From Aplysia californica (Eukaryota): DNA of 64,000 nucleotides. The DNA lies in the NCBI RefSeq assembly GCF_000002075.1, contig NW_004797275.1, positions 1,418,259 to 1,482,258 of the forward strand. The letters run 5' to 3'. Positions 32,965-60,500 of the stretch are shown piece by piece (positions within the stretch are counted from its first letter, which is position 1; every line of letters begins with the position of its first letter). The notes under the pieces are model-generated. The model was given only the letters and a program-made list of their open reading frames with translations, did not search any database and was not told where the DNA came from. The translations under genes were made by a program, and so were the position numbers.

Positions 32965-32999
32965 TCAAAGGGCACCAAGACTTGTCTGAGACCGCGAGC
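32965..32999 (-). CDS. Class C GPCR terminal coding exon (RSRSQTSLGAL*)
   Basis: tctccctgcag|GC TCG...CTT TGA; phase matches exon 15. Confidence 0.7.
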
Positions 33000-37975: not shown

Positions 37976-38035
<60 letters not shown>

Positions 38036-41000
38036 CATTTGTAGCACTGTGTGTTCAGTAACCTCACTGCAGTTGTTACGAATGAATTTCTATATCTGTC
38101 TGTTCTTGCTTTTTTGGAAATGTATCGTTTACTGCGGGTCGATAGTTGAAATTCCGATGTCAGTGGGTGGCTATGGTCACTAAGCATTATTTCCGCCTTT
38201 TTTAGAACGTTTGTCTTGTGCAGATATTCAAAGTTACTTAGGTCTCTATCAATTGTTCTTGATGCCTTTTTTATCAACTTATTTAGTTTTATAATGTGCT
38301 GCCTTCCCAGATTGCTACCATAGCAAGTGATTCCAAAATTGATCAAAGTTTCTATTGTGGTGGTGTAGAAAATCTGAAGGATGGATGGATTCAGATTGAA
38401 AGACTTTAGTTTCCTCAGAAAGTACAGCCTCTGATTTACTTTTTTAACGATATTGTTTACGTGGTTTTGCCATGTAAATTTGTTGTCTATTGTAAGGCCA
38501 AGATATTTGTATGAATCCGTGATTTCAATAGTTTCTTGTTCAATTACGAGTGGTGGGATTGTTGGTTTTTCTCTTCTAAAATCAAAAATCATTTCCTTTG
38601 TTTTTGAGAGGTTCACTTTTAGAAAATTTGAGTTGCACCATTTAAAAAACCTACATATTTCTTCGAAATACTCTTGTTCATCATGGTTTATTAATCCAAT
38701 AATAGCGGAGTCATCTGCAAACTTAATTAAGCGTGTTGTTTTATAAATACTTCTATGATCGTTGGTATATATAGTATACAAAACTGGTGACAAAACACAC
38801 CCCTGAGGACCGCCGGTGTTACAAAGAATTGTGTCAGATTTTGTGTTGTTTAGCTTCACATATTGTGGTCTACCTGTCAAAAATTCCAGGACCCATGCTG
38901 CGATATGATGACTAACTCTCAGACTCATAAGTTTTTCAATGACAATATGCGGTTGAATTGTATTAAATGCTGAGGAAAAATCTACAAAAAGTACCCTCGT
39001 ATACGTTTTAGATGTTTCAAGGTGTTTCAGTATAGAGTCACAAAAAACAAGTACAGCATCTTCTACGTTCCTCTCTTGTTTGTATGCAAACTGGAATGGA
39101 TCTAGATTTCCATGAACACGGCCTAGAATATTAGAGAGGATCAATTTTTCAAGGCACTTGAAAGCAATGGATGTAAGAGCGACTGGTCTTAAGTCATTTA
39201 ATTCATATATTTTAGGCTTTTTTGGTATTGGTATTACCTCCGATGTTTTCCATATTGTAGGAATGTAGTTTTTGTGTAGGGTCAGGTTAAAAATGAAGGT
39301 AAATATCGGGGCCAGTTGCTCACAACAAGTTCTTAACACTCTCCCTTTTACTCCGTCTGGACCACAGGCTTTGTTTATGTTTACACTTTGAAATTTCTTT
39401 TTAACACTCCGCTCACTGAGCTCAACACACTCCTCCCCGCTCAACTCGTCTCTCAGGCTCTGTTTAAGATCACGCTGCTCATTCTCAAAATCAAAACAGT
39501 CGAAACGACAATAAAAGTTGTTTAGCTCATTTACATAGTCTCTTTCATTTTTTACTTGCACACTCTCTCTCGCTGCAGTATAACCCGTTATTTTTTTCAA
39601 AGATGACCACATATTTCTCATATTATTTGTCTGAAATTCGCTCTCAATTCTAGTTTTGTACGCTTGTTTACAATGAGCAATCTTTCTTTTAATTTTTTTA
39701 GATATCAAGTACATTTCATTCATGTTATTACTTCTAAAGGCTTTCCATTTTTCTTTTATAAGATCTTTCAGTTCTTTCGTTACCCATGGCTTATTATTTG
39801 GCTAGTACGTAAGGGTTTTATAAATAGTAACAGTTTCTTCACAAAACTTAATGTAAGCACAAATGGTTTCGGTAAGTTCGTCAAGGTCCTTGCAGGTGTC
39901 TTTGAACATGTCCCAGTCTGTAGAGTCGAAGCATCCCCGTAGCTGCTCGGTCGTGTCGTCTGTCCATGATGGTATCGTCCTGGTCGTTGGTTTCTTTGTC
40001 TTGAGCAGGGGGCGGTACTTTGGGATCAGAAGGATGTTGTTGTGATCTGAGTCTCCCAGCGGTGGAAGGGGGAGAGACTTGTAGCCGTCCTTGACGTTGC
40101 CATAACACAGGTCGATGGTCTTTTGTAACCTTGTGGCGCACTATATATATATAGTTTAACCTGCCTCTTATAATAAGTGAGCAATTGTCGATTATAGATT
40201 GTGAGCTGTAATGTCTTGTGCACTGTGGGATTTTTCTTCCCACGTGGGGTGCATATATGGTTAGCAGTCAAGGGGTTAAAGAGAGAATGAATCAGGCTCA
40301 TATTAGGTCCACTCATATGTACTGTACCTATACCAGTGAAGTGTGTGTTTAGTGTGCAGAAAGGGTAAGGAGACATACTGTAAGACATGCACTTTGACCC
40401 ACAGGGCTAAAGAGAAGAGAACATAAGAAAAGGGAAGGGAAGGGAAGAGAAGAATAGAATAGGGGAGGGGAGGGGAGGGGAAGGAAGAGAAGAGAACGGA
40501 AGGGAAGGAAAGAGAAGAGAAGAATAGAATAGAGAAAAGAGGAGGGGAGGGGAGAGGAGGAGGGGGGAGGGAAGGGAAGGGAAGAGAAAAGAACGGAAGG
40601 GAAGGGAAGAGAAGAGAAGAATAGAATAGAGAAACGGAGGGAAGGGAAGGGAAGAATAGGATAGAGAAGAGGAGAGGAGGGGAGGGGAGGGGAGGGACAG
40701 GAAGGGAAGGGAAGAGAAGAGAAGAGAAGAATAAAATAGAGAAGAGGAGAGGTGAGGAGAAGAATAGAATAGAGAAGAGGGGAAGTGAGGGGAGAGAAGG
40801 GAAGGGAAAGGCAGAGAAGAGGAGAGGAGAGGAGAGAAAAGTAGAGAAGAGATGTGAAAAGAAGAGACAGTGAAATGGATTTTCTTTTTGTAATTTGTAG
40901 ATCTATTGAGCTGGAGAGAGAAAAAACAGGCAGGAACAAGAGCTCCGAACTGCTAGGTGAGCATACACAGGAGATATCTAATGGAAAAATTAGTTTATCA

Positions 41001-42618
41001 CGAGCGGATGAGGGACTAGCTGTGATGAAAAAAAAAAAGAATGGAAAAAAAGCAGAATATCAAACAAATAATAAACCAACACAAACCCTCCTTACTGGGG
41101 TCACCATTGCCCACAACCACCGGCTCTGAGTAGATCCCCTGGTTGTTCACGTAGATGACCGATGACGCCCCTTTGCTCTTGTAGCTAGGGGGCGCCATGA
41201 TCACCGAGCCAGCGTAGTAGGTGTCGCGGTCATCCTCAAGGTAGATCCCCTCCACGCCCATGTTCACCAACTGCCTCACCTTTGGCGGGGAAAACAAAAG
41301 TGCGTCTCGAAATCAACTCAATAACAGTATTTTGTTTGAAGTCAAGTATGCATACAGAAAAATCGGTGGGACACGGAAAAATCTTTCAACTTGTCTTAAA
41401 TACAAAAAATGTAGTAATAGTATGAGAAAACATTTCGGGACCAGAAAATCTGTTCTCTATGTGTGTTTTTCGTTATGTCCATATTTGCTATGCTCATGCT
41501 AGACTGTCCATCTCATTTCCGACTTTAAACCCTTAAAGCTTTGGTCGCCTAAGCCTACAGAACTCATCTCATCTTATTTTGTCCTATCCCATCTTATCTT
41601 CAATATCTTACATTAACTCATCTTATTTTAAATATCTGTCATCATGTCATCTTATTTTGTCCCATCCCATCTTATCATAAATATCTTACATCATCTCTAC
41701 TTATATCACAGTCTACCTTTGGCAGGAACATTGCAAAGAGAATGAGCGTGGCTGTCAAAAAGAGTCCAAAAGCGATGCAAGCGTCACCATACTCCTGAGC
41801 GTAATCCTGGTCCTTGTTCAAACCTCCAACCAAGCCCCAAGCCAGCCAGATGGGGATACTGTAGAGAAACGATAATAGTGTGATGTAATTCTCATGGCTG
41901 TTAACTTTTAAAAAGATGGGGATACTGTAGAGAAACGATAATAGTGTGATGTAATTCTCATGGCTGTTAACTTTTAAAAAGATGGGGATACTGTAGAGAA
42001 ACGATAATAGTGTGATGAAATTCTCATAGCTGCTAACTTTTTAAAACCTTTGTGGTGGGCACAGGCCAAGAGCCTGAGCCCCCCTATTCAAAGCAGACAA
42101 TATTGTAAGAAATGTTAAAATGGGTAAGACTCCCATGGACATATATATGGCTTCGCTTTTATTATTTTTCATGAATTCAGTCTTCAAAGTTCATATTTTT
42201 TCTTCACCGTTGGCAAGTCTATGATGAGTTACAATAGAAAACAGAGAATACAAATTTTTCATGGGTGGTTGGCGGGTGCTCTGGTGTGGTTTGCTCCTTC
42301 TTTACTATCAAACAACCATCATCTTTATCTCTCCTTCTTCTTTTTTATGTTTGTTACTCTCTTGTAACACCTCTAATCTTCGGCACTTATGTGACCTTAT
42401 TGTGTTGCAAGTGCCGTAAAAACTCTTTTTAAAAAATAATTTAAAAAATAAAAATTTACAAATACGGACTCAACCATGTAAGTTGCTCAACATGAGATGG
42501 ATTTTAATTTTTTTAAGGATACTTCAACGGAAAGTATCAATCCTCACGATTTCTTCTTTGATGTGAATCCGATACATAAAAGGAAAGAGGTGACTTTTAT
42601 GTACACTTTCTTTTTCCC

Positions 42619-42665
<47 letters not shown>

Positions 42666-45600
42666 CTTGTCATGAGCGTCTAAATATGCAAGAAAGTCAC
42701 AGCCAAGGGATGATGACCTTTCTGATCACGTAGGCCTATTTGAATGTTCATGAACGCGAAAATAATATACAGTCCAAACCAACGTGCAATTATAGAGTTG
42801 AAATGAAATGGGAAGAAATAGATTGATACCATTGTCACAAATTGGTTTGGTGATGGATGATTTTAGATTCTAGAATATAACAGAAACAATGTCTTGCTAT
42901 CATAAAAAAAGATTTTGTCACAATGAATAACAGCAAAAAGGGAAAGTAATTTAAGAATCCCTCCTCTCCCTCCACTCACCCACACAATCCGTTCCCCTTC
43001 CCCCTCCTTTTCCAGTACAGTTGAAAGAATCTCCTCTCAGCACTTAATGAACTAAAGCACTTTGGCAAAAAGCTGACCTGAATCCTGCGGCAATCCCAAT
43101 AAAGACGCTCTCCCGGTGGTTGGTGATGATGCCGTGAGCATTCAGGGACAGGATGGTGGTGATGAGGATCATGAGCATGATGTAAATCAGTGACATGAGG
43201 TGATTCTCGAAGTTGGTGCGGACAAAATCAGCCATAGAGTCCATGCCCTTGTCGGCTTCCCATGTGTAGTGGTTGCAGACCCAGACACGAGAGCCGTCGT
43301 TGGCGGTCACTTGCACAGCCTCGGGGGGTACGGTGATCAGCCATTGGACGTCTATCACGATCTGAGGACGACACAGGGAGGAAGTGAGGACAGGTCAGAG
43401 ATCATTTCAAGACAAGTTGGAGCTGTGACCTCTATACTTTGGAAGCAGATACAAACAACAGAAATGCTGAAAAAGATATAGACAAACGGAACAGATTTCA
43501 CCAGTGTGAGTGTTTGCAAAGTGAAAAGGACATAGACTCAATGAGAGAAATTTAAAGCAGAGAAGAAGGAAGATAAACAGATAGAACACAATAAAGGGAG
43601 AGAAAGGAAGCAGGAACCACAAGTGGTGCCCTCCAACCACCCGCAAATCTCACCAAAGCACCTTCCAAACACTCCAGTCACAAAGAGGAGCTTTGGTTGT
43701 CAATCTGTAAGAACACATTGGAGCACAGTGCTGTAAAGTAGTTCAGTAGAAACAAGAGTACAATTCCTATTAAAAGAACATTTTTCACTGAGTTAAGCTT
43801 TAGTCTTAATGTGAGTTTTTGCTTGTTTTAGCGCTCACAACTGCATAAGGTCATATGAGCACCAAGGGGTGGATGTCAACAGAGAAGTCCTTACAGGGAA
43901 TCAGGCTTACTCTGCTCACCTCTCTAGCTTCAACAGCATAAAGTCTGCTTCAACTATTAAGGCACCCCGGAAATAGTGGGTTACAAGAGAGTGACAAACA
44001 TACAAAATAAGTAGAGGAAAATTGACGATATTACGGATAAGGAAAGAAAAAGCAACAGTTCCCTGTTGCAATTCCGGCACAGTTATGAGCATGACATCGA
44101 TGAATCAGCCCATTTACTATTTTACTGTGCAACAGAACATGGTAATGTCCCCCCTTTGAGAAAAGCATAAAGACATTTCAGTCAGTAGCACCACCCTGGG
44201 GGGTTAGTAAGAGTTTTATAACATTTGCAACACAATTAGATCATGTAAGTGCTGAAGATTAGAGGTGTAAAGAAGAGAGTAACAAACACAAAAAAGCAGG
44301 AAGAGAGATAGAGAATATAGATACAATTTGACAGGAAATAAAGAGCAAACCACACCAGAACACCCGCTGATTGAGTTTCTCTGTCTTTCTAAACAAACAT
44401 GTTTCAAGTCCGGATACGGCCCTCGCAGGACATAACAAACCAGCCCACCTCTTAAAATAACCTGCACTGAGCCAACAGAACAGCGATGGAGTAAAACATT
44501 TGAAAACTACAACAGAAAAACAATTATATTCACAAACTCAAAGAACTGAATTAATTGCCTTTAACATGTGCAATTTTTCCATAGTTGACTCTCATAACTG
44601 TCATATATAGAACGATAAGCTCAGTACTGGGTAAGGGACCTTCAACAGAAGGGAACAAACAATGATATTCACTTCCGAACACAGCTAATATCTCTAAACT
44701 ATCACCAAAACAGGATCAACCCAGACAAACCACCAATATGCTTACTTCGTGACCATGTCTTGCTTGTTTTAGTAAGCGTTTTACAGCACTTGCAACACAA
44801 TTAAGTAAAAAAAGTGTCAAAGATTAGAGGCATTACAAGTGAGTAACAAACACAAAAAGGAGGACAGATAAGGACGACAGATATTTAATAGGAAAGAAGG
44901 AGCAAACCACACCAGAGCACCTGCCAACCACCCACTTACCATCTACGAAACAGTCCCAACACCTGCTCGTCAAATCTCCCAAGCTACAGAATCTCTTTTA
45001 TTTTTTCGGTAAGTGTTTTACGGTGTTCAAAACTGCATAAGGTCAGATGGCCGTGCAGGACACATTAAACATTTCCAGTGGGTTGGAAATTTTTAATTTT
45101 GCCCAGGAGGCGGCCAAAGTCTATTGTTATCGATTTTGGACCACCAAGGGATCTTTAACGTGCGCAACTTGCACACAAGATCTCAGAGATTTTTTGCCTT
45201 TATCTGAGAAGGCTAGGTGTAGATCTTACCTACTATAAGATCAGGGGTGCGGCTGAAAGACAGCAATAAAAATGAGAAAAGGAGTAGCAATAGAAAAGCT
45301 GCAGAAAGAGTCAGGAGCCCAGAAGAGCGGGTAAAGGAGGTGAGGGGGTGGGGGCAGAAAGTGGAGACAAAAGCAGACGACAGAACATTGTTAGAGAGCA
45401 GGAAAGGAGGAGAAAGGAGACAATTTTAGAGAAGAAAATTTTAGGTCGCTATCCGGATTTGAACCTGGGACTTATTGAATGAGAGGCAAACAGCATTAAC
45501 CTCTCGACCACACAGGACCTCGGACAGCAACTTCTTCCTCCTAGTCCTGCCATAGACAATGCCCTACACTGCAGCACAGCAAAAAAAAAGTTTCTGAAGA

Positions 45601-48600
45601 CCTCCAACTTTTTTAACATGGCATTGGGCCAAAGTACAAAATTTCAAAGTGGGTGGTTGGCAGGTGTTCTGGTGTGGTTTGCTCCTCCTTTCCTATGAAA
45701 CATCTATCATTCACATCTCTCTTCTCCTTTTTTTGTTTTTATTACTGTCTTGCAACACTTTTAAACTTCAGTATTTATACGACCTAATCGTGTTGCAAGT
45801 GCTGTAAAACATTTATTTAAAAATTAATCTCAAAGTCTACTGGATTAACAACAACAAATCAGAAAAGGGATTTTTTTAAAAAGACAATGGAAAACATTTG
45901 ATTTCAGTTGTGCTTACCTGCACACCGACAGCAAAGACGAACATAAGGAATTGGTAAATTCCCTTCAGGTAGTTGGGTGATTCATCTCCAGGAAGCAGGA
46001 CGTCGGACGACTTAGAAGTCAAGATGACCATTAACTTTACCAGCAAAACAGCGAAGCAGATAGCATAGGACACTCCAACACCAAATCGGGTGATACCGCA
46101 TGTTGCCTGAAATTTTTAAAAATAATAACAAACACTTATTCTTTTTGTTCTTGTAATCGCAAAATGCCCCACAAGATATACATAAAGCATGCTGAAAAAG
46201 CTAGCCAACTTTCATCCTCTGGAGAAATGCAAATCAATAGATGNNNNNNNNNNNNNNNNNNNNNNNNNNNNNNNNNNNNNNNNNNNNNNNNNNNNNNNNN
46301 NNNNNNNNNNNNNNNNNNNNNNNNNNNNNNNNNNNNNNNNNNNNNNNNNNNNNNNNNNNNNNNNNNNNNNNNNNNNNNNNNNNNNNNNNNNNNNNNNNNN
46401 NNNNNNNNNNNNNNNNNNNNNNNNNNNNNNNNNNNNNNNNNNNNNNNNNNNNNNNNNNNNNATGCTACAATAAATACTGCGTACATCTTTGCAATGAAGT
46501 CAGTAATGAGTATTTTAGCTGAATCTGAATAAAGAGAGGCACATCGACTTAATAACAGTAAATAAGTGCTGGGAAAGGGCATGACAGATAAACAGAAAGA
46601 AAAGGGGAAAAGTATTAAAGCAGGACCTACCAGAAGCCCCCTCCAACTACCTGGACATGAATGTGGATTGAGGAAACGACTGCCAAAAAGCATCACAGAG
46701 CAATATCAGATCAGTAACCAAATAACACACATCCCAAACCAGACTAACTTATGTCAACAATGTATGTGTCACGACGCGATGGAATCAGGCGCTTGTCAAT
46801 TTTTGAGCATGTAGAGTTATTGGTATCGTCTTAAAACTTGTTCATTTGTCTTGTTTTAGATGATAAAAATCCTCTTCTATCTTGAATTAAAGTCAAGATA
46901 TAAATTTGGTAACTTCCAAACATTGAGAGTCTTTAGTAACAGCAAATTTACATTTTTTTGGGTGCCTTTAACCAAAGTTTTTTCAATAACGTTCTCACAG
47001 AAATGTGTCTATAAATGGACGTACAAGGACATGAGCCTAAAAACAGAAAAATCCATTAAAATTTCCAAACTAACAGAAAAATGCCTGTTTCTATGATTTC
47101 ATTATTGCGACAAACGCCTGATTTCACCACGGTGCCTCACATATACAGTATTTACCTTTGTGGGGACGAAAATGTACGCAAAGAGGACCAAATAAGCCAA
47201 GAAGATTCCAAAGAGGAGCAGCTGCCCCAGCCACATGGTGCGCCACTTGTGCCCCATGCGAGTCCCAAGCAGCTTGTACAAGATGTAGATCTCGAAGATG
47301 ATCACAGCGAGGATACCCACGCCAGCCAAGACGCCAAGAGCGATGACCCAACGGTGGCCTTGGTCGAAGCGGGTGCCGTATTCTTCCCGGTAGCTTTCGT
47401 GGTCGGCGGCCGGGTAGGCGCCGGTGATGGCTTGACCCAGGCGGTACTGCACAGTGCTGAAAGGCAATGGAGGGATAGCTTGATGGGGATTTGCAGACCC
47501 TCAAGACAGACACCCATGAATCTTCATCTCCTCCTCCATTTACATCTTTTCTTTTTCTTTCCCTCCTCCCTGACCTGCTCCTCCCCCTCTTCAATTTCCT
47601 TCTTCTTATCAGTTATTATTTGCACTTTTAATAATAATCTTATTTTAATATTATTATGATCACAATAATTATTATTTTCACAACTATCATTATAGATGCC
47701 TAAACAGTCCCCTATGATAAATAATAATAACAATAATGATGATGATGTTGTTTAAAATAATAATTGAATTTGTACAGCACGTATATGCTCTAGAGCATGC
47801 TCTGCTCTCTGCACTTTATAATTACAATACATATAACTTGATAAAATACATGACTGCAATATGACTATGAGCGATTCATAAACGATGAGCAGAGCAAGGC
47901 CATCTTTATCCAAAATCTGTCGCAAAGAACATGAAAAAGAGAATTTATATTAAATGATGCTTTGCAAATAAAGAAATGACCCAAATAGATACTTCAAAAT
48001 AGGAAATCAGCTGGAGTCCAATATTTTTTAAAATAATGCCAATGGTTTTCAAACATGCATTGTCTTTTGTCTTTATTTTTTTGCGCATAATTAAGTGGGT
48101 GTCTTCATCAAAGCTTGGTTGTGAAAGCCAAACCAATAAGACACTTGAATCAACAACAAAAAAAAGGTGTCAGTACCTAACACTAAAGGGGCTAGCTTAT
48201 TAAATAGACATGAGGGGTGCTGACAAAACTATTTGTTTCTAGCAAATCAGCCGAAAAAGGACACTGCGGTCAAATTTATAGATTTTTTTAATTTATGCCA
48301 TTTTCTTCAAGTTTAACATGTCTTATATTATTACATACTGAAAAATTGTACAAACTTCACCCATAAATTTGTTGTATATCTATAAATTCCATAGGGCTGG
48401 AATCCAAGAAGTAACTCATTTTGTCAGCATGTCTCATATTTCTCCTTTTCTCATTATAATTTTAGAGGGCTACTATACTGCAGAGGCCTTCACATCATTA
48501 CCTGTACTTAGGAGGCTCCTCACTGGTGGGTTCTGAGGTGGCACCAACGGTGGGTGGAGACGTCGGGGGTGCCATGGTGGTTGGAGGCTCACAACATTCC

Positions 48601-51446
48601 CCAGCATTGGGGCACTCAGAGGGGTTAAAACCTGATCCAAAATCGTTTTCCAGGTCAACTGTGATGACTGTATTGCCATTAGAAAAAGATCCAATCTGTT
48701 GAGAGAAATAAGGCTCTTATCAAAACAGAGAAACAAGTTCTTACCAGAAATAAAAGAAATGTTCCGGTTCAGAGAAAAAAAGGTCTCTACTGATATGAAA
48801 GGAAGAAAGACTTACGAGTAGTGCAAACAAGTAAAAAAAAAAAATTCTGAACGAAAAGCATTCATACAAAAAGAACACAATACTGTAAAGAAAAAAAACT
48901 GTACAGAAAAAAAAGTACTGATACAAAGGAGAACAAAAAAGACGCAAAATATTACGGCTCAATAAGAAAACAACAACTTGGCTTACTTTTTCAAATGCAG
49001 GAGACCTGCCCTGACGATTCGCGAAGATGTAGTATTCATACTGTGCTTGGTTCGGCCGCAGTTCCCCGGAGGCACTTTCAAATATTGGGAGAGCAGACTT
49101 GATGGATCTGTAGAGGTCGTTCTGCTTATACTTCTCATTGCGTAACTTGTCGCAGAATTGGTAGTTGCTAAAGTTCTGCTGATTGCAGTCCTGCATAGCC
49201 TTATCCATACCCTGGAAGGAAAAAAATCACTGAAGAATCAGAAGAAGGTCGGGAAGGGAGGGAATAATGACTTACTATTTTCAGAGGTTCTAAACATGTT
49301 CCTCTGTGGTGATAAACTAGATCTCTTATCCATTATCTTATTACATTTTTGTCATAGTGGAAATCCTGCAGCAATAATTATAATAAGGTGAAAGGAACGA
49401 CACAGTATGATATGATATGAAACAGGTTTAACATCCCTTTTAACACAGCAAGTTATCAAAGAGATAGAAGTCTAACCATTACAACACAGACCAAGGCGCA
49501 GTAGAGTAGAGAACCAGCTGTTAGCAGCAATTTTCCACGTGCAATTTGTCGCTATTAGAGTTGCTTCTATTGCCCCAAGCTTCAGTGAGTCTCTAAATCC
49601 TTCCACAAGATGGGGGAATATTCATAAAGCCATGGTGGAATATTAGTGAGAACATGGAGGAATGTTTATGAGAACATGAAGGAATGTTTATGAGAACGAG
49701 GTGGAATATTTATGAGAACATGGTGGAATATTTATAATATGAGAACATAGTGAAATATTTATATGAAAACACTGTGGAATGTTCATGAGAACATGAAGGA
49801 ATGTTTATGAGAGCAACACCGAATATGAGAACAGGAAGGAATGTTTATGAGAACATGAAGGAATGTTTACGAGAACATGAAGGAATGTTTACGAGAACAT
49901 GAAGGAATGTTTACGAGAACATGAAGGAATGTTTATGAGAACACGAAGGAATGTTTATGAGAACATGAAGGAAAGTTTATTCTCTTTTTAGCAGAGGTTT
50001 TACGGCGCTCGCAACTGTATACGGTCACATTAGCCCCAAGGGGTGGATGTCAACAGAGAAGTCCTTATAGGGAATCAGACTTACTCTGCTCACATCTCTA
50101 GCTTCAACAGCACAAAGTCTGCTTCGACTATCAAGGCATCCCGGAAAAAGTGGGTCACAAAAGTGTGACAAACATACAAAAGAAGTAGAGGAAAAATGAC
50201 GATAGTAAGGATTAAGAAAGAAAAAGCAGCAGTGATCCCTGTTGCAGTTCAAGCACAGTTATGAGCATGACATCGATGAATCAGCCCATTTACAATTTAC
50301 GATTCTACTGTGTATAAGAACAGGTTAATGTCCCCCCTTTGGGAATGGCATAAAGAGACTTTAGTCAGTAGCACCGCCCGGGGGGGGGGGGGGGGGGGGG
50401 GATTGGAATGTTTATAATACATGGAGGAATATTCAAGAGAACAAAGTGGAATATTCATGACAATATAGTGGAATGTTTATGAGAACATAGTGGAATATTT
50501 ATGAGAACATAGTGGAATATTTATGACAATGTAGTGGACTGTTTATGAGAACATAGTGGAATGTTTATGACAATGTAGTGGAATGTTTATGAGAACATGG
50601 AGGAATGTTTATGAGTACAGTGGAATACTTATGGGAAGAAAAAGACAGGAGTCGTTATGCTGCTCTGGCCTTTGCTCTAAAGCCTGTGATAATGGACATA
50701 AAATAGAAATAAACAAAATTTTTTGCACAGAATTTAAATCGAATATGGTAATGTGCCCTGTTTCCTTTGAAAATAAATATTGTAATCTCTGTCCACTGTT
50801 TAAAGTAAAAAACAAAACAACAAAATGATTTCAAGGGTCACTGGTTTCATGACACCACATGTAGGGATCAGACTACTAACCTTCATCACCAACTCCACAG
50901 ACATGATAGTTCGAAGTGCAGACATCACTATAGGAGACGGCGTATTGTCATCAATTTTAGGTATTCTGTTGACAAAATCAGAAATTTAAGTACGAGTTTT
51001 ACAGCACTTGCAACACACAATAACGTCATGAAACTGCCGAAGATTGGAGGTGTAACAAGAGAGTAAAAAGTTGTTCCCGCATCCGATCCGGACACTGGGG
51101 ATTGCCTTGTTAGTGAGACAAATTCCTGGGCCTTCGAGTTTACTTCCCTAACAAGAGAGTAACAAACACAAAAAAAGGAGGAGGAGAGATAAGGACGATA
51201 GATGTTTGACAGGAAAGAAGAAGGAAACCACACCAAAGCACCCGAAAACCACCCAAATCAGAGAGCATAGGTGACTTATTTAGAGCGGGTCTACGCAACA
51301 GCAGCTCCATTTTGAAAGGAAGCAGATGAGAAAAATGAAAACATACCAATAAAAAAAAAAGTAGAAAAAACAGATCACACAAGAACATCCACCACCACCT
51401 TGCACAAAATTACTGTGTACGTTAAATCCAATAACCTCAATAGAGG

Positions 51447-51512
<66 letters not shown>

Positions 51513-54500
51513 TGTGTGTGTATGTGTATGTGAGCCTGTAAAAACGCCCAAATATCGAGGATGCAAACTGAGATGCCAGTGTTTCTGGCAGAACAAGCAA
51601 TTCTGATGCTGTTTCAAAAGTTTTTGAGTCATGAGATTGTTTTAGTAAAGGTTTTTCGGCGCTCGCAACTGCATATGGCGATATGAGCGCCAGAAGATTA
51701 GAAGTGTTACAAGGGAGTAACAAACATAAAAAAGAAGGAGGGGAGATAAAGACAATAGATGATGTTTGATAGGAAAGAAGGATCAAACCACACCAGAGCA
51801 CCCGCCAACCACCCACATGAGATATTTTGTGACACAAGATAAAGGGGTGTACAAAGTGGAGAAAACAAACAGTCATGACTCCAATTTTGAGACTTCAAAT
51901 TGTTGTATATTGTACACTTCACATCCTAACTAATTACAGTCAAACCTGCTCTAACAACCTTCTAGGACGATCGTTTCTACAATAAACGACGATTCCTTCC
52001 AGCGCCCCCCCCCCCCTACCCCTCCCAACAAAAAAACACTTTGCATTTTTTTCTCTATAACAATGACACTGTCCAGGAAGGACCACTTTTCTAAGATGAC
52101 CACTTTTCTTCTCGCCGAGGGATAATCTTTCTAAGACAAGTTCAACTGTATATTTAACATGTTAATGAGTCAAAATGTGTTTTACCCTTCCCACGTACGA
52201 TGTGCAAATGGATAAACATTCAATCTTAGCACAAATTCTATTTTGTAAGCATCAGAATAGAAAATGATGCAGGCACCCANNNNNNNNNNNNNNNNNNNNN
52301 NNNNNNNNNNNNNNNNNNNNNNNNNNNNNNNNNNNNNNNNNNNNNNNNNNNNNNNNNNNNNNNNNNNNNNNNNNNNNNNNNNNNNNNNNNNNNNNNNNNN
52401 NNNNNNNNNNNNNNNNNNNNNNNNNNNNNNNNNNNNNNNNNNNNNNNNNNNNNNNNNNNNNNNNNNNNNNNNNNNNNNNNNNNNNNNNNNNNNNNNNNNN
52501 NNNNNNNNNNNNNNNNNNNNNNNNNNNNNNNNNNNNNNNNNNNNNNNNNNNNNNNNNNNNNNNNNNNNNNNNNNNNNNNNNNNNNNNNNNNNAAGGAGCA
52601 AAAAATAACAGGGAGAAAAAAATTGTGATATTGAAACAACAACAAAAAAGGCATGAAACAGAAACATACTCTCCCACAGTCTCTTCGTAATGAGTTATCC
52701 ATTGGTTGTCTACATCACTGAGGGAGTCTACAGCTCCGTTGTTGATGTAAGTTTTAAATTCTGACATGACTGGGTCATACGTTGCGGGCTGGACAGAGTC
52801 GATCACGATGGCATTAGCGGCTGCTGAGCTCTTTGAGGTGAGGAATATTCTGAAAAACAAAAGTATTCACAAAATCAGTGCAAAAAGTTCACCATACGAG
52901 ACTCAACAGTTTTATTTGTTTTTGTAAGTTTTACCATCATCATTATTATATAATACTTATTAGTGGTATTACTATTATCATCATTATTACTATTATCATA
53001 ATCATTATTTTTCCTGTTACTATTATTATTATCATTATTATTATTACTATTTTTTATTACCACTATTATCATAATCACCATTATCACTTTTCTTATTATT
53101 ATCGTTTGTGTTATTACTATGGAACATGATAAGTCTTATTTCATTATAGGCTGAAAAAAATACATGGTGTTTCTCATAGTCTAATAAAAGCATAGAAAGA
53201 CTTAAACTAGGGGATCAAATTTAATTTTATAGTTGTGATTGGCATGTCCACAAAGATATTCTATTTGTGTATCACATCATTTTCGAATGTCACCGACATC
53301 CGACATCAGTATTGAAATAGCTACGCTCTTTGCCACTGCAACCACAAGTAAGATAAATTCCCACAAGGGAAAGCCTATTTCATACAGTATCTTTCTTTTT
53401 TTTTTCTGCTAAGATATTATATCCTACTCAGTCTGAGTAAGCCTTGACAGGCAGAGTCAAGGTAGCCCGCCTCCTATAACAACAAAATTCAGGCCACATG
53501 CAGGCAGCGTAAAAACATTTACAATCAACTATCGCGAGCTGCCCCGCCAAGAACAAGTGACCATCTACTATCAACACAATATATTAGACTCAAAATCAAC
53601 ACCTACATATTATGCTGTAAAGCGCACAGAGTATGCTGTAGAGCATGGATATGCGCTATAAAAATGACTGATACAATCGCCAAACCAGTGTGGAGAAGCA
53701 GACCAAACTGTGGAACACATCCTCCTGCGGACACAAATAAAATATGTCCAACCCCATACACACTACATGAGAAACTGTACACGCCAGCAAAGGGCCTAAG
53801 CAGGATGACCCTGTATATGACAGAGATACAGACTTTCAAGCGTGGTCCAATCAAAAAAAAGAAGAAGAACCACTCATATCTCTGTTGCTTCCAATATCTG
53901 AGGTAAAGATGAACCCAAGTTCCCCATTTCACACAGCCAGCACTAAGTCAGCTAAAGTTGTGCCTCAGGGGGACGTAGAACATCTACAACCAACTACTCA
54001 CATGTTTCTTCCAATTTCTGAGGTCAAGATGAACCGGAGTTCGCCATTCACTGCGTCATTGTTTCCATTGGCGATGGTACCCAGCAATATGTCCAGCTTA
54101 GCTCTGGACATCAGAGGAACAACGTACTTTGCCTTTAAGCGAGGCTTCAACTGCGTGTCCACAAAGGTATCCATCTGAAGACATTGATCAGAAATTACTT
54201 TCAAAATATTATTATTTAGTCGGACGTCTATATTCAGATGTACTAAGACCAACATTTTGACCAGTTTTTGCAGTTTCTTCAGTATCAGTTGCATGTGTCA
54301 AGCAATATTTTGTCAAAATTCAAATTCTCAATGTTGAGAATGGCAAGAAAAATACATAAACTACATACAATTGTAGAAAGAATGAAATAGTAATTTTTCC
54401 TCTCTCTTGAAAAATGTTGCTATCTGGGCCTAAGACATTTGGACAGCTTGCTGACAATTTGAAATACATGCGTAAGTTCAAAGGTCCTATCTAAAACAAC

Positions 54501-57500
54501 AGTAGCTGCTGTCAGTCTATCGGGGATACATCTAGAAAGAATCTAAAAATCAACAACTTATGGTATTTAAGATTTAAACAACTTCAAAGCTCTGCCAGTG
54601 AGTTACTTGGAAGCATTTTATTCAAAAACATTTGTGAGGTATCAGAGAAACAGGCACTTTTCAGCCAGTTTGGCAATTTTCATCAAATTTTTTTTTCCGG
54701 CTCAGCACCTTGTATGTCCCTATAAAATCCTTTTTCGATGTGAACTTTACTGAAAAGCATTGATTAAAGGCAGAAAATAAGTCATTTTTCAGTTTTTAAA
54801 GGACTCTCAAACCACAGAAGCTACCAAACTTTGGCAGCAACTTTCTCCTTAATTTTACCTCTGAAATCATCAGTACAACAATGGGCGCGTTTCATAAGGA
54901 TACAGCTTTTCATGACAACTGCAACACGGAAAAAAAGAGGAAAAAAACAGACCACACCTTACACGGTGGTGTCGATAGCCTAGTGGTCAGGCTCTCGGAC
55001 TTGTAACTGAATGGTTTTTGCATCTCATTGACAGGATCAATAACAACTGGATCAATATATGCACATCATAGCAAAAGGAACTTACATCAGTGACATCATC
55101 TATGCTCTGGCTAAACTGCACACATATGTTGGATCCTTCCAGCTTCTCTTTCAACTTCATGTATGCCGAGGCCCAGAACGGATCATCAGCCAAGTATAAA
55201 ATCATCGCAAACTTCGAATTCATGTGGCGCAAGAATCCAACGACAGCCTCGATGTCATACATGAATGAGGGTCTCAGCCGAAGAAGCGTTTTCTCATCAT
55301 CAAAGGAGAGATCTGGAAAGCAAAACACAAGGTTAACAGATCTTGAGTTCAAGTTTCAATTTTTTTTTAAAGATAAATAACAGCAACATGACAAAGATCA
55401 TTCAGCGGTGGAAATGAGAAAGACAAAAGCAAACTATTGTTTATAACAGTATAGAAGTAGGGCCGACCAGCACCACTCTCCAAGCAAAAGCAAACAATAA
55501 TTCTGCACAGGAAATCGCCATCTTAAAGTTGAGGACTCAGAAGAACGGATTCATTTTTTTCAGGAAAAAACGAACTCCTTGTCTCTGGCAAGCCATGTAC
55601 AGTGGTTTGCGGTATGAACTGCTGTGCCAGTGAGCCGCTAGCAGCTGCTTGGTCACATTCCTTTAAAAAGATGACAACGTTACTATTATTTCCAGTAATA
55701 TGCGAAAACAGGTCTCTCTTAACCAATTTTTTTTTTCATTTGATGAAGAACTATCAAAATTCGTTTGATTTAATGACCAGTTTAGTGATGTGTATGTTAC
55801 TTTCAGGTTTTGTACCAAAAAAGAAAGCTCTGGCATAGTGGGAAAATCCTCGAGAAACAAAGAGTTAAGACATCTGTAACACTCAAAATACCTGTGGACA
55901 TGCACTATATAAGCGCATTTATTATTATTATATATATGTAAGAGCACAGATATGCGCTATATAAATGCAATTATTATTATTTTATATGCAATTTTTATTA
56001 TTATTATTATTATCATTATTAGATCCCACTCGGCCAAGGTTAGCCAGGTAGACAGGATTGAAGCAGCCTACCCCAAAAATTATCAAAATGTTGCCAGTAG
56101 AGGTGTAAAACATTTATATTGATATAGAAAAAGAATATCAAAGCAGCAACAAACCACCTACTTATATCAGCAGAGAAGAAACTTTACCAAAGAGTGGTCA
56201 CAAATGTTATATATTCGTACCCAGCGAGTTTGCCGTTGGGCTGAGAAGAGTAATTCCGAGATCAGAAGCAAGCATCCCTGTCCTGATAGTGTCATCGTTG
56301 TCGTAAGGCCCGACATATGCAACAAGGTTCTCCTGTTGCATTTCCTGAACTCGAATATTACACTGTGCGAAGCTGAGAACATTCCCAATGGTCTGTGAAA
56401 GAAGAACAGGATAAAGTCACCTCATGGTCAAAGGTAAGAATCATAGACATAGATCTAGGCACTCGGTCTTCATCGTCTCACCTACATAATAATTTGTGTA
56501 TTTTACACTTACAAAGAATCAGCAACAAACAGCAGTCCTAAGCCTGAGCATTTGATCCAAGTACACACTAAGAACAGCTTGCTAGACTGTGAACTGTATT
56601 CCCTAATTACTACTGCAGAGCAAAAACAACTCAACACTTTCCCATACCAGGAAAAATACAAGTGAAAAAGAACCAAAAAACCGCCAGCTGTTCAGACATA
56701 GGCCCCTTGAAAAGGAGTTTTAAGGAAAGAAGGGGCAGCACTGTATATTATAGTTGTATCATCACGCAGTGGAATCAGACGCTCGTCGCCGTAAAACCCT
56801 CTACTATAAAAAAAAAAGACGCTCGTCTTGTGTATATGAACTTATTAGTATTATCTTACAGTCTTTTAATTTGCTGTCATTTTGATGGAAAAAAAAACAT
56901 CCACAAAGGGTCATTATCTTGAGTAGACATTGAGATATTTGTGTTTGAAGGAGGTGGGGGTCTTCTTGTGTCAGAGGTAAAATCAGCAAGCAATGGCCAC
57001 CAAAATTTCATGAATTCCAAAGCTTTAGTGTCCCTGAAAACTACAAAGTTACAATTTTTGTGCCCTTGCTTTAAGGTTTTCAGTAAAATTCACACAGACA
57101 TGTCTTTTCAAAGGGACATAAAAGGCACTATTTTCAAGCCTAAAAAAAAAACTTAATAAAAATTGACCGAAGAATAGAAAATTGTGGATTTCTTCGATTT
57201 CACTATTTTGACAAGCACCCGATTTCACCAAAATGCATCACAATATTTTAAGAAAGAAGAGCACCTGTCTCAAAGAGATGTTCAGGAGAATGACAAAAAC
57301 ATATTACCTTCAAAGTCTTGTAAAATAAATACAGTCGGGTCTGCCATGATGGCAATCAGTATAATATGGCCACTTTCCATTTCCCCCCTTGCTTCTTTTT
57401 ATATAATTTAACTGTGTAAAACGGTCACCTGGGCAAGGCGGCCGCAGCTACCTTATTTTAATAACTTCAGCCAACTTTACCTGCCTAAGGCAGCCAGGCG

Positions 57501-60500
57501 TGGTCTCCACTCGCCTGACGCTTTGTCATTAATTCTTAATCGGTCCCTGACACTGTGGACGGGCTGTCATAATCCATTCACCTGTCGTTATTGTTTGTCC
57601 TTCCAATGAATGTTTACCCAAGTTGACCAATGGGTAATAAAAAAATTTCAAGTGCTGTTGAGGGATCAAAGCGTGTGATCCGGCCTATAGGCCCCGCCCA
57701 GAACTCATGCACAAATCATATGATATGATATATGTGAGGTGACTGGTCACTGTTTTGTTTACCTAATCTATAGCAAAGTAACAATGGATATTAACGTAGA
57801 CTTGCGAGAGAAGCCTCATTCATTCTCCGAGTGGTGGCAACCTGTGTGTTTGTTTTACCATGGAATTCGGTCTTCAGCGTCTTACTGACATAATATTTCA
57901 TATATTTTTCACTTACGCAGAATCACCAACAAGCAAAAGCAAACCAAATAATAAATCAACAAAACAACAGCAACAAGAACTCTTCTTACATCCCTCCACC
58001 CTCCTTTTTCAAACGAAAACAAAAGTTAACCCTTTCAAAAATTAAAATTCGCCTCACAACAGTCCTAAGCCTGAGATCAGCCCAGGTTTGGACCTTAAAA
58101 GAGAATGGTTTGCTTTTTTCATTTTGATCAGTCCTGCCTAAGACGGCCACCTGTCTTATACAACCACTTTTCTCTTTGACCAATGGGTGGTCATTTTACA
58201 CAGGTTCAACTGTATATGGTCGCTTTTAAGGACAATCAGGCTAACCCAGATTTGGGGGTTTCCAGAAATGTTGACCTACACCAAAAGTGGGTATTGCCCT
58301 ACCTATAAGAGAAGTTCGGTTTCATTGGTGTGTATAATTCTTTGGTTATAAAGAAAACTCTCCTAGTCTTTAAAAAAAATTGAACAAGGGTCCAAAAACT
58401 TTACCTTCGATTTTCTCAAAACAGCATTTTTAGGGATAGCCCCCCTTAAGGTGCTTAAAAGCCACTAAATATTTGATAACTTGAAAGAGGCAGTGTTTTT
58501 TCAAATGAAAAACAAGCCGACAACTATACCAAACACACAGTATGCATTTCTGCAACACTGGTGCAAAATCTCCTAGAAGAGCACATTTTCATGAGAAGGT
58601 AATGGTAAGTGTTTTACCGCGCTCGCAACTGTATAAGGTCATATGAACGCGCAGGCCACATTAAACATTTTCAGTTGGTAGGACATTTTGAATTTTGTGT
58701 GGGTGGTGGCCAAAGCCTACACTTATCGACTTTAGACCAGAAAAGGATCTTTAACGTGCGCAACTTGCACTCGTGACCTCCGAGATTTTTCGCCCTTGTC
58801 CAAAAAGGTTAAGTTTGGATCTTTCCTACCAGAAGATCAGGGGTGTGGCTGAAAGACAGCAGTAAGAAGGAGCCAAGGAGTAGCAGTAGAAAGGCTGCAG
58901 AAAGAGTCAGAAGTCCAGAGGAGGGGGCAAAGGAGGTGAGGGGGTGGGCGCAGAAAGTGGAGACGAAACAAAACGACAGAACATTGCTGGAGAGCAGGAA
59001 AGGAGGTGAAAGGAGACAATTTTAGAGAAGAAATATTTTTCTAGTCGCGACCCGGAGTCGAATCCGGGACCTTTGATTGAGAGGCGAACACCTTAACCTC
59101 TAGGCCAAGAGAGCCCCCTTCCATGGGAAGTGACAGCAGAGTCTGGAAAGTCTTAAACATTGTTCGTGTTGGATCCCTGGCTCTCAGCAGAGCCGACAGA
59201 ACCAGTGCTTGTTTGAGTTAGTTTTGTTTTAACAAGAGTTTTACAGCACTTGCAACACAATTAGGTCATGATATAAGTGCCCGAGATTAGAGATGTTACA
59301 AGAGAGTAACATACACAAAAAAGAAGGAGGAGAGATTTAGACAATAGACGTTTGATGGGAAATAAGGAGCAAACCATACTAGAGCAGTCGCCAACCACCC
59401 ACTTGTTTGAGTTGGCATGAGCAAATTGAAGCACACCTACACAGTACGAAACGGTAATCTAGCACAAGGGACAAATTAGAAACGAAAAGACAAAAACCAT
59501 CGAGGGAAAGGAAAGAAGTAAGACTTGCCAGTGCATGGTGCCCTCCAACCACCTGCCATGAATAGTAAATCTGAGCTTCCAAGGGAAACCGTTAGATTTA
59601 AACCAGCACACACTTAGGAGTGTGCTCTTTGTGTGGAAGGGTAAATATGTGAGGTATGCTGACAAAATGACTACTTCTCGCAATCCACAAATGGAGATAT
59701 GGCCAAAAATCGACAATGGAGTCGAATTTGTAAATTTTCTATAGATGCCATATTCTTTAAGTCTTGTATAACACGCCTTTTATTTATTTCATAGTTATAA
59801 ATTGTAAAAACTTCACTTTTTTTTCCATAGGGCTCAAATCCGATAAGTAACTCATTTTGTCAGCACTCTTCACATATAACAAATGCAGAAGTGTATGCTC
59901 AGGTCAGTAAGTTTAATGTCTCATCCTAAGATACCTACCTGCTCTGACCTTGAACAAGAGTCAAAAGCGACTGCTCCGACTGACACTGGGCTGTTGATAA
60001 CCGCCTTGTACTTATCTATAGCCCAGAAGAAAGCCTGAAAAAAGAAACAATTTATTAAAACTTTGATAAACTTGTATCCCCTTACGATTATTATTAACCC
60101 GTTAACTTAACAATTGTCCTTACATCCACATCCCCACCCCATACATTATTCATCATTCTAGTTGTCAGTACCCCAGAAGGTACTCTCCCAATACGCAACT
60201 TAGTAGGAGTGGGTTTGATTCCTAAAATTGGTTTAGATTTAGTATCTAACTTAACGAATGACGAGTGTATCAGTTGGGGACTTAACACACTCGGGGGGGG
60301 GGGGGGGGGGGGGGGGTGTAAACCTTATAATAACAATAATAGATAGCATTTGTATAGTGCAAATTCCAGCTCAACAGCAAGCTGTATGCCCTTTACAATC
60401 TGACCAATAAAATTATTACCCCAGCAGACCTGATAGCATTCTGAAACAATCTCAACTACCTGGGAAGCTTAAAGTGCAAACTGCCCTTTTATAAGTGCTA

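Follow-up and report, generated by a model that had tools for sequence, protein, structure and literature searches.

In the current view, class C receptors that carry a Venus flytrap domain relay ligand binding to the seven-transmembrane domain (7TM) only across a rigid connection, either a cysteine-rich domain (CRD) or the GABA-B stalk. The window analyzed here, a stretch of 64,000 nucleotides from Aplysia californica, contains a class C GPCR gene in which, according to a preliminary description, the CRD is replaced by a three-cysteine remnant and a mucin-like stalk. This locus raises the question of how, and whether, its flytrap is coupled to the membrane. A mollusc-wide family in which a mucin-like stalk carries the flytrap and the 7TM is very conserved offers a natural way to ask whether such a connection is required.

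Gene structure and absence of the cysteine-rich domain

The gene (32965..61061, minus strand, as are all features below) has 16 coding exons, each matched exactly to a protein of 980 aa (RefSeq XP_005089382.2, Aplysia "mGluR2"); in isoform X1, a later donor near 41088 adds three residues. One copy of the family was found in Aplysia. Exon 1 (60807..61061, aa 1-85) encodes the start of the flytrap and, to judge by the hydrophobic N-terminus, a putative signal peptide. The flytrap (ANF_receptor) continues through exons 2-8 (48987..60034, aa 86-471), located to within 2 nt near 60034-59939, 56392-56222, 55313-55086, 54174-54004, 52848-52669, 50964-50881, and 49211-48987. Exon 9 (48502..48695, aa 472-536) holds the flytrap end, a knot of three cysteines, C499-C505-C506 (48591..48614), and a Ser/Thr/Pro-rich stalk (aa 508-536, 48502..48587), and exon 10 (47156..47456) holds a conserved segment preceding TM1 (aa 540-572, 47348..47446) together with TM1 and TM2.

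Exon 48695-48502 joins exon 47456-47156 in phase 2 across a GT-AG intron of 1045 nt that is free of N (47457..48501), and W572, the start of TM1, lies 35-36 residues past the junction. The preliminary description had left room for an additional CRD exon; the assembled sequences contain none, as 5.8-kb contigs built in two separate studies (one run each, RNA origin presumed) omit exactly 47457-48501 and 48696-48986 and thus splice the stalk exon straight to the TM1 exon. Two raw RNA runs gave no reads over the exons and are uninformative on expression level. In the three sense frames of intron 47457-48501 we found no open stretch of at least 25 aa with more than four cysteines. A Pfam scan of the full 980-aa protein, which had been proposed as a further check, detected ANF_receptor (PF01094, E 2.1e-12) and 7tm_3 (PF00003, E 9.6e-32) and no NCD3G match at E<=10. 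Both domains are present in all 37 full-length mollusc relatives considered here (gastropods, bivalves, cephalopods, and a chiton; hereafter, the members). NCD3G is not among the 25 listed of the 33 Pfam families found in them, so at most one member could match it. As a control, the same domain gave nine matches elsewhere in the Aplysia genome, five of them above the cut-off and none on contig NW_004797275.1.

The automatic RefSeq name "metabotropic glutamate receptor 2" could suggest that a CRD exon was missed by the gene model or that the gene is a decayed mGluR copy. We regard this explanation as having practically no probability, given the direct splicing in two studies, the gapless intron lacking a CRD-like frame, the same architecture in all 37 members, and the true NCD3G genes elsewhere in the genome. 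For the main isoform, contig splicing and intron content rule out a missed CRD exon.

The three-cysteine knot and the stalk

The core of the preliminary description is upheld by the whole family: instead of the nine cysteines of the mGluR CRD, all 37 members have exactly three, followed by an S/T/P-rich stalk, and the same arrangement is seen in relatives from Lingula and Macrostomum. Most non-heterobranch members space the knot as C-x4-C-x2-C. Over the first 22 residues of the stalk, Ser, Thr, and Pro together make up a fraction of 0.41-0.77 (median 0.59) in the 37 members, compared with 0.19 in the flytrap; this enrichment and the invariant number of cysteines indicate that knot and stalk are more than a chance resemblance. 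The stalk sequence itself is not conserved among relatives.

In the AlphaFold model of the full-length protein, residues 508-537 have pLDDT <50, and in a second AlphaFold model the stalk falls into blocks at pLDDT 46-60. Low pLDDT is no proof of flexibility, and dense O-glycans are able to stiffen such stalks. Composition and models together nevertheless make it likely that the stalk is flexible and O-glycosylated. The distance from the last knot cysteine to TM1 is 60-82 residues in molluscs and shorter in Macrostomum, Intoshia, and the tandem-flytrap relatives described below; from the same cysteine to the TG motif of the pre-TM1 segment it is 38-47 residues in 36 of the 37 molluscs. This narrow range suggests a geometric constraint.

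Whether the knot is a "remnant" is less clear than its three cysteines. The term presumes a loss, tree rooting gives no direction, and in five receptors with tandem flytraps the same knot closes 14 of the 18 repeats. Receptors of this kind include Branchiostoma XP_035696128.1 and XP_035691717.1 and Physella XP_059178375.1, which likewise have the knot and no NCD3G, but differ from the mollusc family in possessing two to five flytraps, a shorter linker to TM1, no counterparts of the cap elements considered below, and a separate 7TM branch. Because the knot recurs at these repeats, its sequence may mark it as a flytrap end-cap, perhaps an old one, and not clearly as what is left of a CRD.

The Venus flytrap domain and its ligand contacts

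The fold of the flytrap matches mGlu chains, and the best match to the protein among solved structures is mGlu3 (PDB 7wi6/9ii2, E 1.6e-67). Cys238 in lobe II (55122..55124) aligns with the mGluR and CaSR cysteine by which flytrap and CRD are stapled together, and is kept in 36 of the 37 members (the remaining one has a gap) and in all three non-mollusc relatives. In CaSR, according to PMC4977154, this staple is disulfide C236-C561.

We scored six positions that bind glutamate in mGluRs, four of them being S165, T188, Y236, and D318. The other two, R78 and K409, are named as contacts in PMC6307864, which also states that class IV mGluRs retain the backbone contacts. Aplysia, unlike class IV mGluRs, has lost the contacts to the amino-acid backbone: its residues at the six positions are D/N/N/F/S/S, with none of the six kept, and D83, encoded in exon 1, takes the place of the Arg that binds the distal carboxylate. 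None of the six is kept in 18 of the 37 members, no member keeps more than three, and position D318 is never Asp; in the control, 11 of 12 canonical mGluRs showed 6/6. The Ser/Thr/Tyr contacts to the amino-acid backbone are retained in 11 of the 37 (bivalves, abalones, and Gigantopelta). Judged by these residues and by the tree below, the Aplysia protein is not an mGluR2 ortholog and, in our reading, not a glutamate receptor. The missing glutamate contacts and the non-mGluR orthology had been overlooked at first reading.

The membrane domain and the cytoplasmic tail

Exon 11 (45918..46106) encodes TM3 and TM4, exon 12 (43078..43361) ECL2, TM5, ICL3, and the start of TM6, and exon 13 (41714..41860, ends approximate) the end of TM6 and TM7. 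The class C motifs are invariant in 37/37: C639 (exon 11) and C728, the TM3-ECL2 pair; K660 (exon 11) and E783 (exon 12), corresponding to Lys3.50 and Glu6.35; and F-x-P-K (exon 13) in TM7. In a fold search, mGlu was the best solved relative of the 7TM, aligned over 260 residues (Z 26.4, rmsd 2.9), with rows spanning approximately 96-389 of the membrane model, so that the cap is barely included. Mean column identity is 0.85 in the TM helices, 0.69 in ECL2, 0.77 in the proximal tail, and 0.33-0.53 in the flytrap, the highest value pointing to the membrane part as the place of strongest selection.

The conserved proximal tail is encoded by exon 14 (41097..41276), with G-x-Y-x-E-D-D, PPxY (Y874), and Y884, and the distal tail, ending in L-G-x-L, by exons 15 (~35070-34867) and 16 (~32997-32965; together 32965..35070). 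Y854, the tyrosine of G-x-Y-x-E-D-D, is invariant (37/37). PPxY occurs in 28 of 37 tails, compared with 3.7% of shuffled tails and one of 106 canonical tails. Thirty of the 37 end in L-G-x-L. The motifs YxN and YxxP were rejected as evidence, being present in 33% and 47% of shuffled tails, respectively.

Such a tail, almost as conserved as the helices, would be expected of a scaffold or cell-contact ligand of the BOSS/GPRC5 kind that works independently of G proteins, its ectodomain binding a receptor on another cell and its tail signaling, or being trafficked, through phosphotyrosine- and WW-domain partners. GPRC5 receptors have a tyrosine-rich tail, and GPRC5B signals through tyrosine. GPRC5A-D and Drosophila BOSS also share with the Aplysia receptor an mGluR-like 7TM and the lack of a CRD; GPRC5D is second among the structural representatives (Z 24.9, rmsd 2.6, 242 aligned), and BOSS clusters rank third and fifth by ESM features, which serves as a lead only. 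In sequence comparison, however, mGlu3 (E 2e-13) matches the 7TM better than GPRC5D does (E 5e-5), the K660/E783 lock and FxPK are invariant, and part of the tyrosine motifs, YxN and YxxP, are those frequent by chance. The Aplysia ectodomain comprises 571 residues with ANF_receptor, in contrast to the short N-terminus ascribed to GPRC5 in PMC1192796. On balance, we consider a role of this kind improbable.

The predicted cap

Two extracellular elements distinguish the mollusc 7TM from that of mGluRs. The pre-TM1 segment has T547, G548, R565, and W572 invariant among the 37 members. The ECL2 stretch comprises 55 residues in Aplysia and 37-44 in the ten canonical mGluRs listed, which bears out the extended ECL2 noted earlier; past C728 (aa 729-753, 43200..43274) it contains an insert of about 20 residues, with N729, H730, T732, R747, F750, N752, and H753 invariant in 37/37. 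Both elements have pLDDT 89-98 in the second AlphaFold model, the equivalent of the pre-TM1 segment 89-96; short strands are predicted in each. They co-occur in molluscs, and neither is found in Lingula or Macrostomum. They likely form a cap over the 7TM. The "~35 aa to TM1" of the preliminary description is therefore right as a length and inexact as a mere linker, since this part is ordered in the model and carries invariant residues.

A disordered stalk directly followed by an ordered segment that is conserved and bears an invariant Thr-Gly is what one might expect if a protease cut the stalk and released the flytrap, so that the newly exposed pre-TM1 segment could act like the tethered agonist of adhesion GPCRs. 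Over the 80 residues ahead of TM1, no dibasic or furin-type site is conserved, and 27 of the 37 members, Aplysia among them, have no such site there at all. O-glycan-rich stalks are usually protease-resistant, which also counts against cleavage. Moreover, the family has 7tm_3 and not the 7tm_2 domain of adhesion GPCRs, and the GAIN/GPS domain has no convincing match, the single weak one being to a GAIN subdomain in one of 37 members (E 0.03). Shedding, put forward in the preliminary description, thus finds no support in the sequence and is very unlikely.

GABA-B (GB1/GB2) resembles the mollusc family in joining flytrap to 7TM without a CRD and in its extended ECL2. As described in bioRxiv 10.1101/2020.04.21.053488, its coupling relies on a sheet formed by linker and ECL2 and on ECL2 touching the flytrap directly. 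The Aplysia stalk could similarly loop out and let flytrap or knot dock on the cap, so that a small ligand other than glutamate closes the dimer and moves the 7TMs. Consistent with this are the conserved, ordered ECL2 and pre-TM1 segment, the backbone contacts of the 11 members, and the narrow stalk length. On the other hand, flytrap, knot, and stalk exist in Lingula and Macrostomum without either cap element, and conservation among the folded parts is lowest in the flytrap, which in Aplysia lacks every contact scored. The pTM is 0.54 for the full-length model and 0.77 when the membrane part is modeled by itself, so the domains are not predicted to adopt a fixed pose. The GABA-B linker is short, rigid, and paired with ECL2, whereas about 65 residues separate knot and TM1 in Aplysia, a far longer linker with a low-confidence S/T/P part. 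A search of PDB with the 7TM profile matched 60 sequences at E<=1, none of them GABA-B, and its structural match is lower than that of mGlu (Z 21.1 versus 26.3). We would give coupling of this type about one chance in a few, and hold it rather doubtful.

A possible activation mechanism

The absence of a CRD and of a missed exon and the mucin-like, low-confidence stalk make it likely that the activation route differs from those described for class C receptors; this much of the earlier proposal stands, shedding aside, whereas mechanical or adhesive sensing, which it also raised, is conjecture. The CaSR lever, according to PMC4977154, requires lobe II and CRD to be rigidly fixed and CRD to contact CRD. 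Since the CRD is absent, the surface for such a lever is missing in the mollusc family, and the knot-TM1 distance, 60-82 residues in molluscs and shorter in other relatives, also disfavors a rigid lever. With a likely flexible stalk and a 7TM predicted to have its own cap, flytrap closure likely cannot lever the 7TM as in mGluRs.

We give about even odds to a reading in which the flytrap serves as a binding module on a tether and no rigid lever is needed to switch the capped 7TM. The stronger conservation of the membrane part, the poorly conserved flytrap pocket, the joint occurrence of the two cap elements, the invariant class C motifs, the enriched PPxY, and the arthropod relatives that keep the 7TM with no flytrap match speak for it. 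One knot cysteine would bond lobe-II Cys238 and the other two would bond each other, closing off the flytrap, while the pre-TM1 segment would pack with the ECL2 insert as a lid on the 7TM. The tethered flytrap may bind a large extracellular partner (a protein, matrix, or cell surface) and so position or cluster the receptor. The on/off switch would lie in cap and 7TM, responding to a ligand of its own or having a basal activity that clustering tunes, and G proteins and the conserved tyrosine/PPxY tail would carry the output. Several observations run against a tethered module: the narrow stalk length in molluscs, the whole flytrap with its cysteines in every full-length lophotrochozoan member seen, the backbone contacts in 11 of 37, which would fit a small ligand closing the trap, and the fact that GABA-B couples without a CRD and that ECL2 is extended in the mollusc family as well.

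Phylogenetic position and related receptors

The 7TM tree was a quick search with midpoint root on 75 of 109 aligned rows (fragments, long-insert, and redundant rows being dropped); it contains no GABA-B, GPRC5, or BOSS rows and none identified as class I or IV mGluRs. A branch with support 100 sets nine canonical mGluRs apart, and the mollusc family (support 98) is outside. Compared with mGlu1-8, it shares flytrap, class C 7TM, lobe-II staple cysteine, TM3-ECL2 cysteine pair, K3.50/E6.35, and FxPK, and differs by lacking the nine-cysteine CRD and, in Aplysia, the glutamate contacts, and by having the stalk, the pre-TM1 segment, and the ECL2 insert. We read the protein as a presumably expressed class C GPCR, an orphan whose family is lophotrochozoan and separate from the glutamate receptors. 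No description of the mollusc family was found in the literature searched; subscription journals and bioRxiv supplements, outside that search, may hold one.

The mollusc 7TM groups (support 99) with Aedes AAEL000818, a putative equivalent of Drosophila CG32447, and an arthropod clade of 22 rows; such arthropod receptors give the nearest non-lophotrochozoan matches. These orphans resemble the molluscs in being S/T/P-rich ahead of TM1 and in the tail motif R-Q-L-x-x-M-G-x-(E/D)-G-x-Y/F-x-E-D, but none of those scanned has a flytrap match, most lack the knot, and their ECL2 insertions are variable and mostly ahead of the cysteine. Since 7TM and tail motif occur there with no flytrap, the 7TM lineage evidently persists without it. 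Among living class C receptors, the mollusc family stands between the mGluR type and those with no flytrap. More tentatively, and with the odds against it, these receptors might form an unnamed protostome class C lineage that uncoupled its flytrap into a mucin-stalk adhesion or capture module, with the mollusc lid as the switch, the flytrap discarded in arthropods, and the knot an ancestral end-cap from which the nine-cysteine CRD arose; if true, this would be an additional class C activation mode besides the CRD lever and the GABA-B stalk.

AAEL000818 appears as "GPRmgl4, putative" in PMC3680159. In mollusc genomes the family is named "mGluR2/3-like" even though the site for glutamate is lacking, and studies of expression in Aplysia, Lymnaea, Biomphalaria, and bivalves may be misled by this name.

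Gene structure and domain architecture

The receptor gene lies on the minus strand, from 61061 to about 32965, and its 16 coding exons match, exon by exon, the 980-residue Aplysia californica protein XP_005089382.2, named in the source 'metabotropic glutamate receptor 2 isoform X2'. The Pfam scan of this protein matched ANF_receptor (the Venus flytrap) and 7tm_3 (the membrane domain, 7TM) and gave no match to NCD3G, the nine-cysteine domain (CRD) of mGluR and CaSR. Exon 48695-48502 (minus) encodes the flytrap end, the knot cysteines C499, C505 and C506 and a Ser/Thr/Pro-rich stretch, and exon 47456-47156 (minus) encodes TM1 and TM2, preceded by about 35 further extracellular residues. The intervening intron (1045 nt, GT-AG, 0 N) contains no CRD-like frame. 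In 5.8 kb contigs from two sequencing runs of two studies, runs only presumed to be RNA, the stalk exon is spliced straight to the TM1-2 exon; exon coverage from two raw RNA runs was none at all and is hence uninformative. The presence of three cysteines and a Ser/Thr/Pro stalk in place of the CRD, as proposed in the preliminary description, is confirmed by the Pfam result and the intron, and the contigs join the two exons directly, with no missed CRD exon between them. The chance that the arrangement is an artefact appears negligible.

Elsewhere in the Aplysia genome NCD3G has nine matches, five of them above the cut-off, and the TM1-2 exon matches at least this locus and at least one weak sequence with 30% identity. 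Divergent CRD-bearing class C genes occur at three loci, L002, L003 and L005 (genome contigs C299, C1154 and C29); a single long exon carries the CRD and TM1-4 together with much of the flytrap in L003 and L005, and all three may be part of an expanded chemosensory-type receptor set.

Distribution of the family

Sixty-four relatives were found with the TM1-2 exon, the named ones being molluscs (gastropods, bivalves, cephalopods and a chiton), and precomputed annotation places NCD3G on none of the 64. Alignment of the 37 near-full-length members revealed exactly three knot cysteines in each, 60-82 residues (median 66) between the last of these and TM1, and a Ser/Thr/Pro fraction of 0.41-0.77 in the first 22 stalk residues versus 0.19 in the flytrap. 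The three-cysteine knot and stalk with no CRD is thus a family trait. A profile search over 1.84 billion representatives extended the set to single-flytrap proteins of Lingula, Macrostomum and Intoshia that carry a three-cysteine knot (the Intoshia protein is missing the stalk), Owenia 7TM proteins with no flytrap match, a large flytrap-less 7TM set including Aedes AAEL000818, and receptors of Branchiostoma and Physella with 2-5 flytraps; NCD3G was detected in 0 of the 35 wider relatives scanned.

Family proteins already stand in databases under automatic names, and AAEL000818 is tabulated as 'GPRmgl4, putative' (PMC3680159). The ESM Atlas holds clusters of flytrap-plus-7TM proteins without NCD3G in cnidarians and diatoms, and absence of the CRD is a feature of known class C receptors too, namely GABA-B. 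The openly accessible literature searched yielded no account of the family, stalk, knot or cap. The architecture is therefore a real, conserved class C variant, apparently undescribed in that literature; its mechanism, discussed below, is a proposal.

Two variations precede the membrane domain. A bivalve group (Mercenaria, Mactra and others; proteins P0033, P0037, P0038, P0042, P0046 and P0051) has the distal stalk half swapped for a longer, charged, helix-like segment ahead of the conserved pre-TM1 motif. In flytrap-less insect-type relatives (P0106, P0109-P0117, P0122, P0129 and others) a short conserved motif, R-L-E-M-S/L-T-E/D-F-F, lies some 40-70 residues ahead of TM1 and precedes an S/T/P stretch; this motif may be functionally analogous to the pre-TM1 segment of molluscs.

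Relation to metabotropic glutamate receptors

The membrane domain is an intact class C 7TM, with C639, C728, K660, E783 and F-x-P-K invariant in the 37 members and a fold matching mGlu 7TMs at Z 26. The glutamate pocket was compared at six ligand-contact positions, all six of which are filled in Aplysia by other residues (D, N, N, F, S and S). R78 and K409 are two of these mGluR contacts (PMC6307864). None of the six is kept in 18 of 37 members and at most three in any member; all six are present in 11 of 12 canonical mGluRs. A maximum-likelihood tree of 75 7TM domains, from a quick search and built without GABA-B, GPRC5, BOSS and CaSR rows, gathers the canonical mGluRs into one group (support 100) and the mollusc family into a second (98); at a branch with support 99, the mollusc family falls on the side that also holds the Lingula, Macrostomum, Owenia and arthropod-type flytrap-less rows. 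Being midpoint-rooted and sampled in this way, the tree shows that the family is separate from mGluRs, not the order of events. Judged by sequence, the receptor is not an mGluR, and glutamate is predicted to be inactive on it.

The membrane part (0.85) and the proximal tail (0.77) are the most conserved regions, and the flytrap (0.33-0.53) is the least. An invariant Tyr sits in the tail within G-x-Y-x-E-D-D, and PPxY occurs in 28 of 37 tails, compared with 3.7% of shuffled tails and 1 canonical tail of 106.

The three-cysteine knot

Lobe-II cysteine C238 aligns with a cysteine present in 12/12 canonical mGluRs and is kept in 36/37 members and 3/3 non-mollusc relatives. Its CaSR counterpart takes part in the C236-C561 linkage that fixes lobe II to the CRD (PMC4977154). 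Because the number of knot cysteines is odd and C238 is at hand, we infer two disulfides among these four residues, predicted to join C238 to one knot cysteine and the remaining two to each other. The knot starts where the CRD starts in mGluRs, and thus a common origin of the two is likely. Among the 18 flytrap repeats of five tandem-flytrap receptors, 14 close with a matching motif, some of these being internal repeats that lie far from the membrane, and so the knot behaves as a flytrap end-cap. NCD3G is undetected outside animals and ANF-bearing receptors are older, according to PMC12716839; given also the knot-ended repeats, both a remnant of a CRD and a seed of the CRD are possible. The earlier wording of a three-cysteine remnant presumes a loss. 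The tandem receptors themselves (P0213, P0225, P0194, P0210 and P0223, including Physella and Branchiostoma) have 2-5 flytraps, most of them knot-ended, and are without NCD3G.

Stalk, cap and possible mechanism

A full-length AlphaFold model (mean pLDDT 68.9, pTM 0.54) is confident in the flytrap and falls under 50 at stalk residues 508-537. For a fragment of a relative running from knot to tail, modelled on an alignment of 98 rows (pLDDT 80.5, pTM 0.77), values are 46-61 for knot and stalk, 89-96 for the pre-TM1 segment and 94-97 for the whole ECL2. Invariant among the 37 members are T547, G548, R565 and W572 of the pre-TM1 segment (Q544, T564 and F566 nearly so) and N729, H730, T732, R747, F750, N752 and H753 of ECL2; the segment and the ECL2 insert are both missing from the Lingula and Macrostomum relatives. 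The two would pack together as a putative lid on the 7TM.

When the flytraps of mGluR and CaSR close, the CRDs fixed rigidly to them come together and the 7TMs are reoriented (PMC4977154), whereas this receptor has a three-cysteine knot and S/T/P stalk and no CRD. The GABA-B linker is short and pairs with ECL2, which contacts the flytrap (bioRxiv 10.1101/2020.04.21.053488); here, in contrast, about 30 low-complexity residues separate knot and ordered cap. This gap, the unconserved pocket and the flytrap-less arthropod relatives favour a reading, to which we give an even chance, in which the flytrap would serve as a tethered binding module and the on/off switch would reside at the capped 7TM. 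A distinctly less probable alternative, in which the flytrap has a non-glutamate ligand and docks directly on the cap, agrees with the narrow stalk length within molluscs and with backbone contacts retained in 11/37 members. Scaffold signalling of the BOSS/GPRC5 type seems rather unlikely. Shedding with a tethered agonist, of which shedding was suggested earlier, is disfavoured by the absence of a dibasic site in 27/37 members and is quite improbable.

Variation and repeats in the gene

Contigs from run X9, not those from X4, differ at 48542 and 48550 in the stalk exon, likely as alleles. Alternative donors where exon 14 ends (41088-41097, minus) account for the three-residue difference between RefSeq isoforms X1 and X2, and a similar short insert occurs at the same tail position in some relatives. 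At about 41840-42040 (minus) a roughly 63-nt unit, three times in tandem, spans the exon 13 splice acceptor and first codons and could be a source of alternative acceptors. The intron separating exons 7 and 8 contains arrays, at 49640-49980 and 50400-50630, in which a unit of roughly 21 nt is repeated in tandem. Within the next-to-last intron, which separates exons 14 and 15, lies on the gene's own strand a non-LTR retrotransposon copy (38035-40140, minus) with an open 588-aa frame (RVT_1, E 1e-31), preceded by a further open stretch; a mariner-type transposase fragment lies at 11555-11974 (minus; Transposase_1, E 2e-4, below cut-off). Many copies of a short interspersed repeat, some 150-200 nt long, lie in both orientations in the introns, including 42270-42420, 44200-44370, 44780-44930, 45640-45810, 51000-51260, 51630-51820 and others.
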